The notes beneath the pieces are model-generated. The model ran no database searches. It saw only the letters and a program-made list of their open reading frames with translations, and was not told where the DNA came from. Shown piece by piece: positions 1,656-31,169 of a DNA stretch of 37,331 bases; positions within the stretch are counted from its first letter, which is position 1; the number at the start of each line of letters is the position of its first letter. The translations under genes and the position numbers were made by a program. This DNA comes from a virus (Duplodnaviria > Heunggongvirae > Uroviricota > Caudoviricetes), in the IMG/VR virus record IMGVR_UViG_2537561506_000022, positions 1-37,331 of that record; one strand, given 5' to 3'.

Positions 1656-1731
1656 TCTTGTGCCATAGTAATCGGGCACTGGCAAAATCCAGTGCCGGGA
1701 TTGGCGTCCCGGATTACTAAAAGGCGCATTC

Positions 1732-1752
1732 ACCGCGCAAGCGGTTTTTTTA
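1732..1752 (+). terminator. Intrinsic terminator (ACCGC-GCAA-GCGGT plus T7 run)
   Basis: 5-bp stem with GNRA tetraloop followed by TTTTTTT; lies between the small antirepressor gene and the Bro-N antirepressor gene. Confidence 0.5.
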
Positions 1753-1850
1753 TGCGTATAGCACGGCCACATTCGTATTATGGTGGGCTGTGTGGGGGCA
1801 CCGAAAGGTGCGCCGGGTCCTTTTAGCCGGTTACGCCAACCCTGCACAGT

Positions 1851-1883
1851 TCACCACCAACCGATTGGCGTCGGTAGTGGTGA
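1851..1883 (+). promoter_or_regulatory. Hairpin TCACCAC...GTGGTGA about 25 nt upstream of the Bro-N antirepressor start
   Basis: TCACCAC (1851-1857) / GTGGTGA (1877-1883) with inner ACCGA-TTGGCG-TCGGT; a related ATCACCAG-N7-CTGGTGAT element precedes the antirepressor at 35393. Confidence 0.35.
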
Positions 1884-1908: not shown

Positions 1909-2604
1909 ATGACAGCTACAAAAAGCACGTCCATTTTTTCTTTCGAATCCCAAGCCGATATACGAGTAATCGTCATTAATGGTGAGCCATGGTTTATCGC
2001 TTCAGATGTTTGTCGGGCTATAGGCATAGCAAACCATCGAGATGCTGTTCGAAAACTTGATGATGATGAGAAGGGCGTCGCTTCAACCGACACCCCTGGC
2101 GGTGAGCAAGAATCGATCATCATCTCCGAGTCAGGCCTCTACACACTGATCCTCCGCTGCCGCGACGCAGTGACACCAGGCACTATCCCCTACCGCTTTC
2201 GTAAATGGGTTACAGGTGAGGTTCTTCCTCAGATCCGCCGCACCGGAAGCTACATTAAAAACTCGCTCCCGCAGGAAGAACGCATAAAGATGCTTGCCGA
2301 CCAGGTAGCCAGCGCCACGGCGTCAGCAGTGATGCAGGCGATGAAGATAGAGAACAAAACCTACAGTGCCCCGCTGAAGCCCGGCTACCGCAGCCTGATT
2401 CATTCTCCGTCTGGTGTTCTCGGCCTGACTGAGAACTCACTGCTGATGAATCTGCTGAACCAGTTACAGGAAGACGGGCATGATGTATCGGGCGCAGCGG
2501 CGGAGCTGACCACCATGTTCTGCTACATCGTCGGTGTGAGCAAATGCCTGCGTGATATCCAGACCCACGCGGAGTACATCAACGACAAGGCAGGGTTCTT
2601 CTGA
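1909..2604 (+). CDS. Phage antirepressor, Bro-N N-terminal domain plus shared C-terminal domain
   Basis: 231-aa ORF; N-terminus FSFESQADIRVIVINGEPWFIASDVCRAIGI is a Bro-N signature; C-terminal ~80 aa identical to the C-termini of ORFs 3681..4619 and 35363..36049. Confidence 0.8.
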   Translation: MTATKSTSIFSFESQADIRVIVINGEPWFIASDVCRAIGIANHRDAVRKLDDDEKGVASTDTPGGEQESIIISESGLYTLILRCRDAVTPGTIPYRFRKWVTGEVLPQIRRTGSYIKNSLPQEERIKMLADQVASATASAVMQAMKIENKTYSAPLKPGYRSLIHSPSGVLGLTENSLLMNLLNQLQEDGHDVSGAAAELTTMFCYIVGVSKCLRDIQTHAEYINDKAGFF

Positions 2605-2812: not shown

Positions 2813-3352
2813 GTGTTAAGTGAAGAAATGCAATTTGCCATGGCTGTAGCTCAAATCGTAAGTGCAGTCGCGGTTTCGCTTGGCTTGTTCATAGCTATCG
2901 CTACTATTATTTATAATGTAAATACAGCGAGAAAAGTACACACTTCAGTATTCCTTGGTGAAAGCAGGTTTGATGTAGATTATAAGAAAGGCCTATCTAC
3001 TATGCGCCGCATTCACGAATCGAACAAATCATTCCGCTCTTATATGTATCCAAGCAATGGGCAGGCTGATCTTACGGATGAAGAAAAGACAGAGAAGAGA
3101 GAAATAATTTACTGCCTAGGTTTCTACGAACGCATGGCTGTGAGCGTGAAGCGGAAAACTTATGATGAGACCATGATTAAGGAAGTATTTTACAGCTCCG
3201 TTGTAAATAACTATCAGATTGCGCTACCTCTTATACAAGCCATTAGAGAAAAAGAAAACATAAACACATATTTTAAAGAATATGAATGGTTGGCCACACG
3301 ATGGAAGGATTGTCCATTGAAGGATAAATCCCCGTGGTACAAGTTTTGGTAA
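2813..3352 (+). CDS. Membrane-anchored protein of unknown function (N-terminal TM helix plus ~140-aa soluble domain); cargo candidate
   Basis: 179-aa ORF, GTG start with GGAG 7 nt upstream (alternative ATG at 2828); hydrophobic segment FAMAVAQIVSAVAVSLGLFIAIATIIY; locally AT-rich; no family recognised by eye. Confidence 0.6.
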   Translation: MLSEEMQFAMAVAQIVSAVAVSLGLFIAIATIIYNVNTARKVHTSVFLGESRFDVDYKKGLSTMRRIHESNKSFRSYMYPSNGQADLTDEEKTEKREIIYCLGFYERMAVSVKRKTYDETMIKEVFYSSVVNNYQIALPLIQAIREKENINTYFKEYEWLATRWKDCPLKDKSPWYKFW

Positions 3353-3445
3353 GCCCGCGTTGCGGGCTTTTTTATGGACGAAACAAAAGTTAGTGCTACA
3401 CTCATTGACGCCACATTGAGGTGGCTTATAGATGGAAATTTCACA

Positions 3446-3607
3446 ATGAAAAAAGCATTTGCTGCACTGTTCGTTTTGTTGTCTCTGGTAGCTTCAACTC
3501 AGGCCTTTGCCGGTCGTTGTCAGCACGACAGCGATACTGCTGCTGACGGCTCCCGCTGCGGTGGGCGTTCTGCGGATTCCCGCCCGGGCGGCGGTGGCAT
3601 TCGTTAA
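3446..3607 (+). CDS. Small predicted secreted peptide (signal peptide plus 31-aa Cys/Gly/Arg-rich mature part)
   Basis: ATG at 3446 in frame of track ORF 3374..3607; MKKAFAALFVLLSLVASTQAFA looks like a Sec signal peptide with an AFA-G cleavage motif; the coding region is GC-rich unlike its neighbours; weak RBS. Confidence 0.35.
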   Translation: MKKAFAALFVLLSLVASTQAFAGRCQHDSDTAADGSRCGGRSADSRPGGGGIR

Positions 3608-3630
3608 AAACAAGGCCGCGAAAGCGGCCT
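3603..3630 (-). terminator. Intrinsic terminator for the leftward antirepressor transcript (AGGCCGC-GAAA-GCGGCCT plus U-run on minus strand)
   Basis: 7-bp stem with 4-nt loop; minus-strand reading gives the hairpin followed by TGTTTTTAAC. Confidence 0.55.
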
Positions 3631-3642
3631 GTGACATGTCAC
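3631..3642. promoter_or_regulatory. 12-bp perfect palindrome GTGACATGTCAC (second copy at 24368..24379)
   Basis: Exact palindrome present twice in the window, both times followed by N-CTA and both just 3' of a minus-strand gene. Confidence 0.3.
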
Positions 3643-3657
3643 GCTAGTTTCGTTTTG

Positions 3658-3920
3658 CACGTCCCTGTGCCGCCGTTCTGTCAGAAGAACCCTGCCTTGT
3701 CGTTGATGTATTCCGCGTGCGTCTGGATATCACGCAGGCATTTGCTCACACCGACGATGTAGCAGAACATGGTGGTCAGCTCCGCCGCTGCGCCCGATAC
3801 ATCATGCCCGTCTTCCTGTAACTGGTTCAGCAGATTCATCAGCAGTGAGTTCTCAGTCAGGCCGAGAACACCAGACGGCGAATGAATCAGACTGCGGTAG
3901 CCTGGCTTCAATGGATAACC
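3658..3920 (-). repeat. Copy B (inverted) of the ~260-bp antirepressor C-terminal repeat
   Basis: Reverse complement matches copies A and C; slightly more diverged at its 5' end. Confidence 0.85.
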
Positions 3921-4619
3921 ATAACATTTTGTCTGTGTTTTAATTGCCTCACGAAGCGCATCTAACATCTTGACTGCCACTTCATCATTCTCTGATGCAG
4001 ATCCAGCAGGGAGATACTCCCCTTCAAGCGGAACCCGAGCAACAAGAGACAACGCTTCGGCAAATTGATCTTCACCAATTTCTTTGTACGAACAGCCAAA
4101 ATGAGATTTCAGTGACGACCACATGGTGATCATCGCCTTAGCCTGTTTTTCTTTTGGCAGAGACTGACCGCGACTCATGACGAGTTGTTTAATGGCTTCC
4201 TGCTGTTCAGTTGTTATTTTACCCGGCAACGCCTTTTTAGCTTTGCGTGGGTTAACCACATGGCCTTTAGTCCAGTACTCGTAGAGCACATCGTCACACT
4301 CTTCCTGATACTGGATTACCTTGTCGCGGATTTCAGGGCGGACTTTGTTAGGGCTGATGCTGTTCAACCAAGCTGCCAATTTTCGTAAAGCCATACAAAT
4401 CATGGCTTGCACCCCACCGGCAGAAGGTATGGTGATTTCCACCATACCCTTCGAGAAGCGTTGAGAAATCTTCTTATGTTGAGATTTCCAGTCTAGCCCC
4501 ATTCCCTCAACGATAGGTTTCATTGGGGTATACGGTTCGCCGTTGTGATTGACAACATAAAGCTCTGCGCCGTGGAATGGCACGTTGATAGTAGATACTG
4601 CTGTTGCTATACTCGTCAT
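3681..4619 (-). CDS. Phage antirepressor (P22 Ant-like N-terminal region plus shared C-terminal domain)
   Basis: 312-aa ORF; position and orientation downstream of an Arc-like gene mirror the P22 immI arc-ant layout; C-terminal ~80 aa shared with ORFs 1909 and 35363. Confidence 0.75.
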   Translation of the reverse strand: MTSIATAVSTINVPFHGAELYVVNHNGEPYTPMKPIVEGMGLDWKSQHKKISQRFSKGMVEITIPSAGGVQAMICMALRKLAAWLNSISPNKVRPEIRDKVIQYQEECDDVLYEYWTKGHVVNPRKAKKALPGKITTEQQEAIKQLVMSRGQSLPKEKQAKAMITMWSSLKSHFGCSYKEIGEDQFAEALSLVARVPLEGEYLPAGSASENDEVAVKMLDALREAIKTQTKCYGYPLKPGYRSLIHSPSGVLGLTENSLLMNLLNQLQEDGHDVSGAAAELTTMFCYIVGVSKCLRDIQTHAEYINDKAGFF

Positions 4620-4668
4620 GTCGTTAATTCCTATACGTAGTTTTACGATACTGAAGCCCTGACGGTCT

Positions 4669-4682
4669 GGCCACCGTGGGGC
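4669..4682. promoter_or_regulatory. Palindrome GGCCACCGTGGGGC in the arc-ant intergenic region
   Basis: Shares the CCACCGTGGGG core with 4874..4888; a GAAGCCC/GGGCTTC hairpin is also present here. Confidence 0.35.
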
Positions 4683-4691
4683 TTCGCTGTT

Positions 4692-4859
4692 TTATGCCAC
4701 GCTATTCTTCTCACCAGTGAGTCCATACACTTTCCTCAGCTGATAGATAATCTCTGTATTGAACTTTCGGCATTCTTTTTCGCCATTTCTTTCAATAGCT
4801 AACTTCACATCGTCCGGAAAACGAACTCGTCGTTGACACATCTCTTTTGCTTTTTGCAT
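4692..4859 (-). CDS. Arc-like ribbon-helix-helix repressor
   Basis: ATG at 4857..4859 (reverse) with GGAG 7 nt upstream (track ORF extends to a GTG at 4880); RVRFPDDVK...NTEIIYQLRKV aligns with P22 Arc (NLRWPREV...NSEIYQRV). Confidence 0.55.
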   Translation of the reverse strand: MQKAKEMCQRRVRFPDDVKLAIERNGEKECRKFNTEIIYQLRKVYGLTGEKNSVA

Positions 4860-4873
4860 TTCATATCTCCTTA

Positions 4874-4888
4874 GCCCCACCGTGGGGC
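4874..4888. promoter_or_regulatory. 15-bp perfect palindrome GCCCCAC-C-GTGGGGC, candidate Arc/Mnt-type operator
   Basis: Sits next to the Arc-like RBS in the divergent arc/mnt control region; CACCGTG half-sites recur at 4899-4907 and, inverted, at 4926-4932. Confidence 0.45.
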
Positions 4889-4979
4889 AAAATAATTGTC
4901 ACACCGTGCGTCATTGATGTCAAGCACACGGTGAGGCATACTTCAATCATTGCAAGTAACTCAATATTTGGTGAAGAAC

Positions 4980-5411
4980 ATGAGCAGAGAAGATCCACAA
5001 CTAAGGATCAGACTTCCCGTCGAAGTAAAAGAAAAAATAGAAATTTCTGCAAAAGCCAATAAGCGATCAATGAACGCTGAAATAGTACAACGTCTTGACA
5101 CCAGCTTTCTGAAAGATATTCATGAAGATGACGTAATTTCTGCTTATGAAGCAAAAATCATTGCAAACAATGCACGACATGAAATATCAAATATTATTTT
5201 CAAAAGAACCTTTAATGAAATTAATAAGAAAATAACACTTGGACATACAAGTTTTTATATAAACCTTAATGACCTTGAACTGGAATCACTTGCAGATAAT
5301 GATTACCAGATCATCTTTGAAAAAACATTTAATAAGCTCAATGAACTAGGTTACATCATCTGTGAAAACTCATGGGATGCAGATGGTTTTGGAATTGAAA
5401 TACCTGAATAG
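4980..5411 (+). CDS. Mnt-like ribbon-helix-helix repressor with a ~60-aa C-terminal extension
   Basis: ATG at 4980 with GGTGA 5 nt upstream; SREDPQLRIRLPVEVKEKIEISAKANKRSMNAEIVQRL aligns closely with P22 Mnt (ARDDPHFNFRMPMEVREKLKFRAEANGRSMNSELLQIV). Confidence 0.7.
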   Translation: MSREDPQLRIRLPVEVKEKIEISAKANKRSMNAEIVQRLDTSFLKDIHEDDVISAYEAKIIANNARHEISNIIFKRTFNEINKKITLGHTSFYINLNDLELESLADNDYQIIFEKTFNKLNELGYIICENSWDADGFGIEIPE

Positions 5412-5474
5412 GAAGAACAAAAGGCGTGTACATATTACACGTCTTTAATACAATTGAAAAACGCCACATTACTG

Positions 5475-6065
5475 ATGTATGTTACAACAAGGAGCGATAT
5501 TTTGAAAACCATATCTATATTAAAGGTTGCATTAGGCGTCGCTATTATTTTGACTCTCTCAATATTGTTTTATTTTTACCACAAACAAACTGCTATTGCT
5601 CTTGATAGTCACGCGGCAAACTCATTTTTCTCAGAGTACATAGTGCCGCTATCAGGAAGCGGTATAACAAATAAATATACTGACTATGACATCAAATATG
5701 GAATTGATGATGGGGAGACTATTGTATTACATGTAATCATTAAAAACCTAATGACAGTAAATAAAAATACAGACTTCAACGATAAAAATACAATACATCA
5801 CAACAACAGCAAAACATTAATTTCTTATAGTAGCAACATCTATACGGATAAATACCTAAAATACATATCAGAAGATACAATAAAAGAAACCCGCGCAAAG
5901 TTAAAAAACATATATTGTGCATCCGGCAGTTTTCACAAATTATCGCCGCAAGAGCGTTTATTCTACGAAGCAAGAAAACAACGTAAGTCAATAATATTAC
6001 ATTATTATGCTGATTCAGGGGAGACACTCATATTTAATATTGGGGTTTCCCCTGAATCATGCTAA
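5475..6065 (+). CDS. Low-GC membrane-anchored protein of unknown function; candidate superinfection-exclusion protein by position (P22 sieA-equivalent)
   Basis: Track ORF 5454..6065; likely start is ATG 5475 or TTG 5502 (the TTG has AAGGAG 7 nt upstream); hydrophobic ILKVALGVAIILTLSILFYFY; very AT-rich with N/K/Y-rich codon use. Confidence 0.55.
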   Translation: MYVTTRSDILKTISILKVALGVAIILTLSILFYFYHKQTAIALDSHAANSFFSEYIVPLSGSGITNKYTDYDIKYGIDDGETIVLHVIIKNLMTVNKNTDFNDKNTIHHNNSKTLISYSSNIYTDKYLKYISEDTIKETRAKLKNIYCASGSFHKLSPQERLFYEARKQRKSIILHYYADSGETLIFNIGVSPESC

Positions 6066-21451: not shown

Positions 21452-21528
21452 GTGGCATTAGCTCAGTTGGACAGAGCAACCGCCTTCTAAGCGGTTGGTC
21501 GCAGGTTCGAATCCTGCATGCCACGCCA
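21452..21528 (+). tRNA. tRNA-Arg (anticodon UCU), phage-borne
   Basis: 77-nt cloverleaf read by eye: acceptor GTGGCAT/ATGCCAC, D-arm AGCTC...GAGC, anticodon stem ACCGC/GCGGT with loop CTTCTAA, T-arm GCAGGTTCGAATCCTGC, discriminator G and encoded CCA. Confidence 0.9.
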
Positions 21529-30584: not shown

Positions 30585-31169
30585 ATGAAAAGTATCCAGG
30601 ACGTCCGCAGGCAAAATCTCAACGACTTGATCGACCGTGAATTCAATGGTGTTCAGACGCGGATGGCAGAAAAACTTGGAACTCAGGCAAATCTGGTAAA
30701 CCGCTGGGCTCTTGGCAAGAAGGTTATCGGCGACCAGGTTGCGCGAAAAATTGAAGCTGCCGCCAATAAACCCCGTAACTGGCTTGATATCGATCGCTCG
30801 CTTTCTCAGGAAGGTTTTCAGCCTGTCGGCCCAAGCGACATTGGTCAGCTGGCGGCTCACAACCTGGAACGCTGGATGAGCGAAAGCCGCGACCTTTCAA
30901 CACAGGGAAAACTTCACCGCGCATCCGGCGTCGCCCAGGTGACAATCAGCCGCCTGTTAAACAATGAGGTCAGCGTTTCCATTTCCACCCTGGAGAATGT
31001 TGCATCTGCATTCGGGCGTCACGGATATGAACTACTGATTCACCCGCACGACCCTGCAACTATCAACTATGACCGCTCGCGCTACGCATTATTACCTGAA
31101 ACCGAGAAAGCAAAGATCGAAAGTTACATTGAATTTGTCATCAACCAGAACGAAAAAAACAAACAATAA
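30585..31169 (+). CDS. Prophage repressor candidate: two XRE-type HTH domains, no S24 peptidase domain
   Basis: 194 aa; HTH-like segments QTRMAEKLGTQANLVNRW and SGVAQVTISRLLNNEVSVS; divergent from the Cro-like gene; followed by a strong terminator. Confidence 0.6.
   Translation: MKSIQDVRRQNLNDLIDREFNGVQTRMAEKLGTQANLVNRWALGKKVIGDQVARKIEAAANKPRNWLDIDRSLSQEGFQPVGPSDIGQLAAHNLERWMSESRDLSTQGKLHRASGVAQVTISRLLNNEVSVSISTLENVASAFGRHGYELLIHPHDPATINYDRSRYALLPETEKAKIESYIEFVINQNEKNKQ

Follow-up and report, generated by a model that had tools for sequence, protein, structure and literature searches.

The stretch of DNA analysed here, called the window throughout, comprises positions 1 to 37,331 of the IMG/VR virus record IMGVR_UViG_2537561506_000022 (Caudoviricetes) and carries, at 3681-5411, an immI-type module in which an antirepressor gene (ant) and an Arc-like gene lie on the minus strand and a divergent Mnt-like gene lies on the plus strand. 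This module is very probably a complete P22-type immunity-I (immI) antirepressor switch in an Escherichia coli prophage resembling Escherichia phage TL-2011b, because an antisense RNA (sar), its promoter Psar and terminator-like hairpins after ant and mnt add to the genes themselves; all three open reading frames (ORFs), both promoters, sar and three operators are intact in the window. The module departs from P22 immI in having three operators that belong to one family, a Pmnt that has moved and has an operator of its own, an extended Mnt and a replaced Ant C-terminus, and across related loci the operator sequence co-varies with the DNA-reading strand of the Mnt-like protein.

Anatomy of the immI-type module

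In P22, 'immunity I' consists of two small repressors and an antisense RNA that restrain an antirepressor, and with Arc and Mnt it has been a classic model for DNA recognition by a beta-sheet and for antirepressor control of lysogeny. The P22 entries BK000583 and X01916 carry annotations for Omnt, Oarc, sar and both promoters. Compared with them, the window agrees in the identity, order and orientation of its genes and has the same succession of Pant -35 hexamer, 17-nt spacer, -10 hexamer, six-base gap and palindromic operator with an identical CCACGGTGG centre, the same placement of sar and Psar, with the sar terminator overlapping the arc stop codon, and terminators after both ant and mnt. 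The two systems differ in that the protein identities are just 32% (Mnt), 33% (Arc) and, over the N-terminal two thirds of the protein, 39% (Ant), that the Oarc position is occupied by a CAC-N-GTG site instead of a TAGA-type Arc operator, that Pant and Pmnt interdigitate in P22 whereas the Pmnt of the window lies about 25 bp further outward with its own operator O3, that Mnt has an extra domain and the C-terminal domain of Ant is replaced, and that the host phage is TL-2011b-like rather than P22-like. An earlier note on this DNA had proposed a module like P22 immI, its mnt and arc-ant units diverging, and the gene order, orientation and protein families are indeed as in P22; the 120-bp control region that it described between the diverging repressor genes is found at 4860..4979, between the two start codons. 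The features it named are all present in the sequence, at or near the places given for them, and its description did not include the sar RNA and Psar.

TL-2011b is 96.4% identical to the window over 3400-5700, and among 5426 complete E. coli genomes, 36 have the core of the module (4600-5420) at 97-100% identity, chromosomal in every case, with E. coli 2015C-4498 at 100%. The TL-2011b annotation names only an 'Arc-like repressor' and an 'anti-repressor Ant' and labels a truncated mnt 'hypothetical', and no published description of this immI variant was found in the literature on the motif, on Mnt-like immI variants or on the antirepressors of TL-2011b and phiV10. Searches with NCBIfam and PADLOC returned nothing informative for the module proteins.

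The Mnt-like protein can be divided into a ribbon-helix-helix (RHH) head at residues 1-46, with the strand Q7-L-R9-I-R11-L-P, a long Mnt-type helix at 55-86 and an additional alpha/beta domain at 87-143. That it is an RHH protein, as previously suggested, is borne out by three kinds of comparison: it scored 54.5 bits against Pfam Arc (PF03869, cut-off 20.4), its profile matched AmrZ (6e-8), 1mnt (2e-7) and Arc (1e-5) in the PDB, and Foldseek matched the RHH head to 1par_A (Arc) and 3qoq_D (AmrZ) with probabilities of 0.99-1.00. Comparison with P22 Mnt by hhalign gave 97.4%, and in BLASTP all 83 residues of P22 Mnt aligned with residues 1-86 (E 3e-14), so placing residues 55-86 opposite P22 Mnt 52-83, the tetramerisation helix in P22; AlphaFold2 (AF2) modelled this part as one long helix, with an overall pLDDT of 79.5 and values of 85-92 in residues 61-100. 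Common to the two proteins are the RHH domain, the N-terminal arm R-(D/E)-D-P and the arginine before the strand proline, the predicted C-terminal helix aligning with that of P22 Mnt, and they differ in the strand residues, which are Q7/R9/R11 in the window and H6/N8/R10 in P22.

The C-terminal extension of about 60 amino acids (aa) claimed earlier is real and conserved, extending over residues 87-143 (57 aa) beyond the P22 Mnt alignment, and AF2 placed a beta-alpha-alpha-beta-beta unit there, following the helix, at a pLDDT of about 80-92. A check for a known domain, as the note had advised, identified none: no Pfam or NCBIfam model covers the extension, Foldseek against the PDB matched nothing beyond the RHH head, and the search of BFVD retrieved only uncharacterised phage proteins of about 90 aa at E 2.5e-3 or worse, none of these being a significant fold match. 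The full-length protein matched phrog_1388 (5e-72) and belongs to a family of 'Arc family DNA-binding proteins' of 142-152 aa, with 262 homologues in Enterobacterales at 58-69% identity, in which the first 13 residues are invariant. Among 1.8 billion representatives, the C-domain was found only behind RHH heads, of various specificities, and relatives with the same head, Arc-like partner and operators have Mnt-like proteins of 86-91, 117-121 or 142-152 aa. Differing tails thus accompany the same head and operators, and the 57-aa extension is therefore interchangeable and not needed for site recognition; most likely it adds an oligomerisation or input function, and it marks an uncharacterised family of C-terminal domains on Mnt-type repressors.

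The Arc-like gene starts at the ATG 4859..4857 and stops at 4692, in agreement with the 168-nt coding sequence of TL-2011b. Profile-profile comparison with the Mnt-like family by hhalign (91% probability, E 1e-6, with QRRVRFP aligned to QLRIRLP) and weak similarity to P22 Arc (BLASTP, E 4e-5, aligned from residue 1) identify its product as a predicted RHH protein, and it matched phrog_228, 'Arc-like repressor', at 2e-5. The PDB matches obtained with phmmer were TAL-repeat and designed proteins only and were rejected as spurious. As compared to P22 Arc (1par), the protein is of similar size (55 and 53 aa), is likewise encoded by the first gene of the ant operon and has Gln9 and Arg13 in register; the differences are the middle strand residue, which is R in the window and K in most relatives as opposed to N in P22, the lack of a TAGA-type operator in the window, and a homology that is mainly detected by profile methods. 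The earlier proposal that both small proteins adopt the RHH fold is accordingly upheld for the Mnt-like protein, by model and profiles, and for the Arc-like protein by profile comparison, Pfam and AF2 by themselves not confirming it, as detailed below.

Residues 1-212 of Ant account for the similarity to P22 Ant, and the DNA encoding the N-terminal part is 94% identical to CUS-3 ant. The last ~90 aa form a different domain that is not homologous to P22 Ant and is shared, as phrog_450, with the Bro-N protein encoded elsewhere in the window (Table 1); the shared C-termini of the two antirepressors appear as a 270-nt inverted repeat of 92% identity (2336-2605 and 3680-3949). This common domain presumably serves to recognise the target repressor.

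The sar RNA was identified as a full-length match to Rfam RF00262 at 4621-4688 on the plus strand, with two hairpins and a score of 44.8 bits (gathering score 43), compared with 97.8 for P22 sar, from which it differs in the upper stem of the terminator, which contains CACCGTG. Its fold has an energy of -23.5 kcal/mol (z -2.5), the 3' terminator hairpin spans 4652-4686, the U-tract at 4690-4693 overlaps the arc stop codon, and the start point of Psar adjoins 4621.

Among the promoters of the control region, Pant is the best match, and its hexamers are invariant or nearly so across 13 genera. Pmnt was assigned by conservation, as TTGNNG-N17-CATAAT with TTG(A/C)(T/A)G at the -35 position is retained in all aligned relatives; its -35 hexamer overlaps that of Pant back to back, and the -35 hexamers are all that the two promoters have in common.

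Table 1. Positions of the features of the module and of the second antirepressor unit in the window.
Feature	Position	Strand	Basis or remark
isrK RNA	1676-1751		Rfam; upstream of the Bro-N gene
C4 antisense RNA (P1/P7 immI type)	1776-1861		Rfam; directly upstream of the Bro-N gene
Bro-N protein, 231 aa	1909..2604		Pfam Bro-N, 2.5e-21
Terminator-like hairpin with T-run	3613..3630	-	downstream of ant; likely end of the arc-ant operon; P22 ant terminator at the same relative place
ant antirepressor, 312 aa	3681..4619	-	Pfam P22_AR_N, E 5.9e-45; phrog_524 and phrog_245, 'anti-repressor Ant'
Psar, TTGATA-N17-TATACT with upstream TG	4585..4613	+	promoter scan 10/12 plus TG; inside the first ant codons
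sar antisense RNA	4621..4693	+	complementary to the ant ribosome-binding site and arc-ant spacer
Arc-like gene (predicted RHH), 55 aa	4692..4859	-	first gene of the Pant operon; strand Q9-R-R11-V-R13-F-P
Shine-Dalgarno AAGGAG of the Arc-like gene	4867..4872	-	read from the sequence; 7 nt before the ATG
O1 (putative operator), perfect palindrome GCCCCAC-C-GTGGGGC, centre 4881	4874..4888		about +1..+15 of Pant; counterpart of P22 Omnt
Pant: TTGACA (4923..4918), 17-nt spacer, GACAAT (4900..4895), extended -10 TG	4895..4923	-	promoter scan 10/12 plus TG
O2 (putative operator), GTCACAC-C-GTGCGTC, centre 4905	4898..4912		in the Pant spacer, at the P22 Oarc position
Pmnt (predicted): TTGATG (4915-4920), 17-nt spacer, CATACT (4938-4943)	4915..4943	+	conservation in relatives
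O3 (putative operator), AGCACAC-G-GTGAGGC, centre 4930	4923..4937		in the Pmnt spacer; without P22 counterpart
Mnt-like repressor, 143 aa	4980..5411	+	Pfam Arc, E 1.1e-14 over residues 2-46
Hairpin, likely mnt terminator	5425..5441		3' of the mnt-like stop codon; reported on -; the + strand has the same palindrome followed by TTT

Operators and the Mnt-like reading head

The palindrome O1, with 7-nt arms around one central base, lies directly upstream of the Shine-Dalgarno sequence and ATG of the Arc-like gene; it had been picked out in the earlier note, is exact and represents a credible operator. What the note had called CACCGTG half-sites are instead the cores, CACCGTG at 4902..4908 and CACGGTG at 4927..4933, of two further complete putative operators, O2 and O3, located in the Pant and Pmnt spacers. 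On the minus strand O2 reads GACGCAC-G-GTGTGAC, and in most relatives O3 is a perfect palindrome, CCCCAC-S-GTGGGG. The three sites share the consensus G-N-C-N-CAC-S-GTG-N-G-N-C. The core CACSGTG occurs six times in the window (4.4 expected), with four of the occurrences falling within 4672..4933, and three such sites within 60 bp were found in 0 of 2000 shuffles; the refined consensus CNCAC-S-GTGNG has exactly three matches (0.21 expected), namely O1, O2 and O3.

The sites had been described as differing from the P22 operators. For O1 this does not hold as far as its descent is concerned, given that it is the positional and sequence counterpart of Omnt, identical at 11 of 15 bases, the entire CCACGGTGG centre among them, and separated from the Pant -10 by the same six-base gap, and it does hold for two symmetric changes per half-site. 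In P22 the order is TTGACA-N17 (the spacer holding Oarc)-TATATT-ctcaat-AGGTCCACGGTGGACCT, and on the minus strand of the window it is TTGACA-N17-GACAAT-tatttt-GCCCCACGGTGGGGC, running on into the Shine-Dalgarno sequence and the ATG. For P22 Mnt, which binds its palindrome as a tetramer, the optimum half-site has been measured to be GTGGACC (PMC2726951), and the O1 half-site GTGGGGC is identical to it at positions 1-4 and 7, with GG in place of AC at positions 5-6. Judging by these alignments, O1 is a variant of Omnt with a symmetric change at two positions per half-site. P22 has a single Mnt operator as compared to three sites in the window, and a P22-type Arc operator (21 bp, TAGA boxes) was not found in the Pant spacer, which holds the CAC-N-GTG site O2.

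To follow these sites in relatives, we used two sets of loci. A protein-pattern scan with one genome per species gave 25 loci, including Kluyvera, Yersinia pestis, Citrobacter, Pantoea, Proteus, Morganella, Xenorhabdus and Serratia as well as the more distant Acinetobacter, Giesbergeria, Pseudorhodoferax and Rhizobium, and in each of the 25 the Mnt-like gene is preceded by two or three CAC-N-GTG sites, spaced by 24-27 and 25-26 bp. A DNA-pattern scan of viral contigs for three CAC-N-GTG cores gave at least 119 loci, of which 30 were tandem-repeat artefacts and 59 had a gene encoding M(S/T/A)R.D..Q.(R/K/N).R.P within 160 bp. In the genome loci and in at least 59 viral contigs, the three-site layout always adjoins a gene of the MSRED.Q..R.P type. 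Alignment of 13 control regions from 13 genera showed an invariant block from the Pmnt -10 through O3 to the shared -35, O2 and the Pant -10, with variable sequence outside it; the O1 core is kept, and its distance to the -10 drifts by a few bases. Substitutions among the 36 E. coli genomes spare the operator cores.

Covariation was analysed in 77 distinct control regions, numbering each half-site outward from the dyad as G1 T2 G3 N4 N5 N6 N7. Position 5 is G in 100% of the half-sites (296/296) that accompany a Mnt-like strand Q-R-R, T in 96% of the 126 half-sites with Q-K-R, and T in 30/30 with Q-N-R, where position 4 is C in 80%; the P22 Mnt strand, H-N-R, is associated with A at position 5. 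The rule is valid for all three operators, and the six half-sites of the window all obey it (GTGGGGC twice in O1, GTGCGTC and GTGTGAC in O2, GTGAGGC and GTGTGCT in O3). The sites track the Mnt-like head, because the base at operator position 5 changes together with the residue in the middle of its beta-strand, and we conclude that all three operators are probably built for this head. In five viral loci the three sites are kept while the divergent gene encodes an Xis-like helix-turn-helix protein, not an RHH protein. The change of the strand residue from R to K to N, alongside G to T to T at operator position 5, constitutes a natural specificity series.

Proposed circuit and alternative readings

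With this arrangement, a strong Pant would drive the arc-like gene and then ant, and a weak divergent Pmnt would drive the mnt-like gene. In the lysogen, a dimer of Mnt-like RHH dimers on O1 would block Pant and thereby the synthesis of antirepressor, leaving the main prophage repressor active. As the Mnt-like head appears to fit O2 and O3 as well, its binding there would add to the repression of Pant and probably provide negative autoregulation of Pmnt. After infection or upon loss of Mnt, Pant would fire; the Arc-like protein, whose DNA-facing residues are likewise Q, R and R, would most likely act on the same sites, chiefly O2 and O3, accumulate and shut both promoters, and sar RNA would pair with the ant ribosome-binding site, limiting ant translation. 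Ant would act on the main repressor of the phage through its C-terminal domain, inactivating it. We tentatively put forward, at well under an even chance, a single recognition code in which the Mnt-like and Arc-like proteins both read the three CAC-N-GTG operators and differ only in timing and oligomerisation, the Mnt tail setting cooperativity between sites about 25 and 50 bp apart or receiving a signal. If true, such a single-code switch would follow a logic unlike that of P22, where Arc and Mnt have distinct operators.

Several observations weigh against the interpretation of the module as a P22-type immI switch with this circuit. The covariation was counted without correction for shared ancestry, and in the viral set the CAC/GTG core was imposed by the search, so that information comes from positions 4-7 only. 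The Arc-like strand of most relatives is Q-K-R, and the operators still have G at position 5; the rule that pairs K with T is therefore not simply transferable from the Mnt head to Arc, and no covariation pattern between the K/R residue of the Arc-like protein and the operator flanks assigns O2 or O3 to that protein. The Arc-like protein itself falls below the Pfam Arc threshold (E 0.12), its profile matches PDB Arc weakly (E 0.04-0.08), and its AF2 model is poor (pLDDT 56), built from just six near-identical sequences, since small ORFs are seldom called; the model has helices at the RHH positions, which we did not count as evidence. The sar match is only 1.8 bits over the gathering score, with related loci below it, and the Pmnt of the window has 8/12 matches and is missing from the promoters that the scan reported. 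The TL-2011b reference (NC_019445) carries a +1 frameshift early in mnt. Operator occupancy, the division of labour between Arc and Mnt and the oligomeric state are what we infer from the analysis.

The frameshift lies at 30848-30911 of the TL-2011b record, where an extra G at codon 9-10 of the mnt-like gene (CTAAGGGATC versus CTAAGGATC) is the reason why RefSeq annotates just a 113-aa 'hypothetical protein', and tblastn matches to TL-2011b begin at residue 10. It is either a true inactivation, which would make the gene dispensable in a viable phage, or a sequencing error.

Alternatively, the two repressors might divide the sites strictly as in P22, with the Mnt-like protein on O1 only and the Arc-like protein, bound as a pair of dimers or as a bridged tetramer, on O2 and O3 and repressing both promoters, the shared core reflecting the common descent of the RHH proteins; we regard this as possible, on balance rather doubtful. 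O1 and O2 lie exactly at the positions of P22 Omnt and Oarc, and in Enterobacterales O2 has invariant flanks of its own (GACGCAC/GTGTGAC), unlike O1 and O3 (GCCCCAC/GTGGGGC). However, the flanks of O2 overlap the extended -10, and a constraint from the promoter would suffice to explain why they do not vary; O1 equals O2 in one locus (L015), and other clades have all three sites of one type. Furthermore, position 5 co-varies with the Mnt-like head at all three sites, and loci without an RHH partner retain all three.

A different question is posed by the 'second copy of the core' that the earlier note had reported at 4669..4682. As a sequence repeat it is real, CCACCGTGGGGC recurring exactly at 4671..4682 as a 12-nt match to O1 that includes one full half-site, GTGGGGC, and it could be a fourth operator, giving Mnt or Arc control over sar termination or over readthrough into ant as well. 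We consider this quite improbable and rejected the copy as an operator, given that it forms the 3' arm of the sar terminator stem, in which GCCCC(A) is already present in P22 and CUS-3, leaving only about six further bases to coincide; that 13 related loci have the hairpin at the same place without CAC-N-GTG; that two closely related E. coli prophages have CACCGTT there (G to T), with O1-O3 intact; and that its left half, GTGGCCA, violates the invariant position 5. The copy is regarded as a coincidence helped by the conserved stem, and it may at most be a lineage-specific weak site.

The O1 palindrome could also work mainly in the RNA rather than as a protein-binding operator, folding the 5' end of the arc-ant mRNA into a stem-loop that influences message stability or the access of ribosomes; it occupies about +1..+15 of the predicted transcript, with 1 nt between it and the Shine-Dalgarno sequence, and a 5-bp G-C stem could form. 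This seems very improbable, considering that the arms are often asymmetric in relatives (GCCTCAC...GTGTGAC in L008 and L016) with CAC-N-GTG and position 5 invariant, that the same motif recurs in non-transcribed promoter spacers, and that the palindrome fits the experimentally defined half-site of P22 Mnt (PMC2726951). We give scarcely any credence to the module being a decaying remnant without a current role: the mnt frameshift of the TL-2011b record and the variable, often degraded immI regions of P22-like phages (PMC2629481) would fit, yet every ORF, promoter and operator as well as sar is intact in the window, the 36 complete E. coli genomes carry the intact module, and the substitutions among them avoid the operator cores.

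Neighbouring genes and the spread of the cassette

The window contains a second antirepressor unit at 1676-2604, of another control type and convergent with the P22-type ant, in which isrK and C4 RNAs precede the Bro-N gene. Palindromes of the form TTACC-N5-GGTAA occur eight times in the window (0.24 expected), at 1625, 21115, 24275, 28122, 28184, 30515, 31227 and 31289, and the copy at 1625-1639 lies just upstream of isrK/C4, so that the antirepressor under RNA control may be subject to the main repressor. None of the eight is within the P22-type module, in line with the earlier view that its operators are unrelated to the TTACC-N5-GGTAA family and form a separate regulatory layer.

Between the two antirepressor genes are a DUF4760 protein gene (2813..3352, plus strand; Pfam 8e-31), the TL-2011b counterpart of which is labelled 'YafO family toxin', and a gene for a 53-aa secreted or membrane peptide (3446..3607, plus strand; phrog_14503). 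Just downstream of mnt, where P22 has orf59a and sieA, a gene of 31-33% GC content (5454..6065, plus strand) encodes a 203-aa protein with an N-terminal membrane helix that matches phrog_8033 (function unknown) and, weakly, the TIR-like ThsB (E 0.007); a prophage-expressed function in exclusion or defence is possible. Elsewhere in the prophage, Rfam matched a tRNA gene and sRNA-Xcc1, at 21452-21525 and 35262-35351.

Other arrangements are seen among related loci. In L019, L022, L023, L026 and L028 (Xenorhabdus, Serratia), the promoter is followed by a gene for a 57-aa non-RHH protein and then a Bro-N antirepressor, a second small RHH gene (DPQLRARIP) is convergent with the 107-109-aa Mnt-like gene and overlaps its 3' end, and all three operators read CTCAC-S-GTGAG. 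The 'ant moron' variants of P22-like phages, among them epsilon34, CUS-3 and HK620, are alike in being mobile antirepressor cassettes with interchangeable regulators and cargo (PMC2629481), and CUS-3 differs in having other RHH proteins and other control-region repeats, GGTACGCAT. CUS-3 is said to lack arc (PMC2629481); in its sequence (CP000711, locus L029), ant is preceded by a 46-aa ORF of the Arc family (Pfam Arc, 3e-8) that is not annotated, at 2368..2508 on the minus strand, with the GGTACGCAT repeats in its control region.

The module does not overturn the current understanding of immI. It indicates that the cassette has spread far beyond P22-like phages, into E. coli and many other Enterobacterales, with distant forms in Acinetobacter, beta-proteobacteria and Rhizobium. 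In this prophage, two antirepressors are under separate control, one of them that of the module, and they probably govern induction as well as cross-talk with other prophages.

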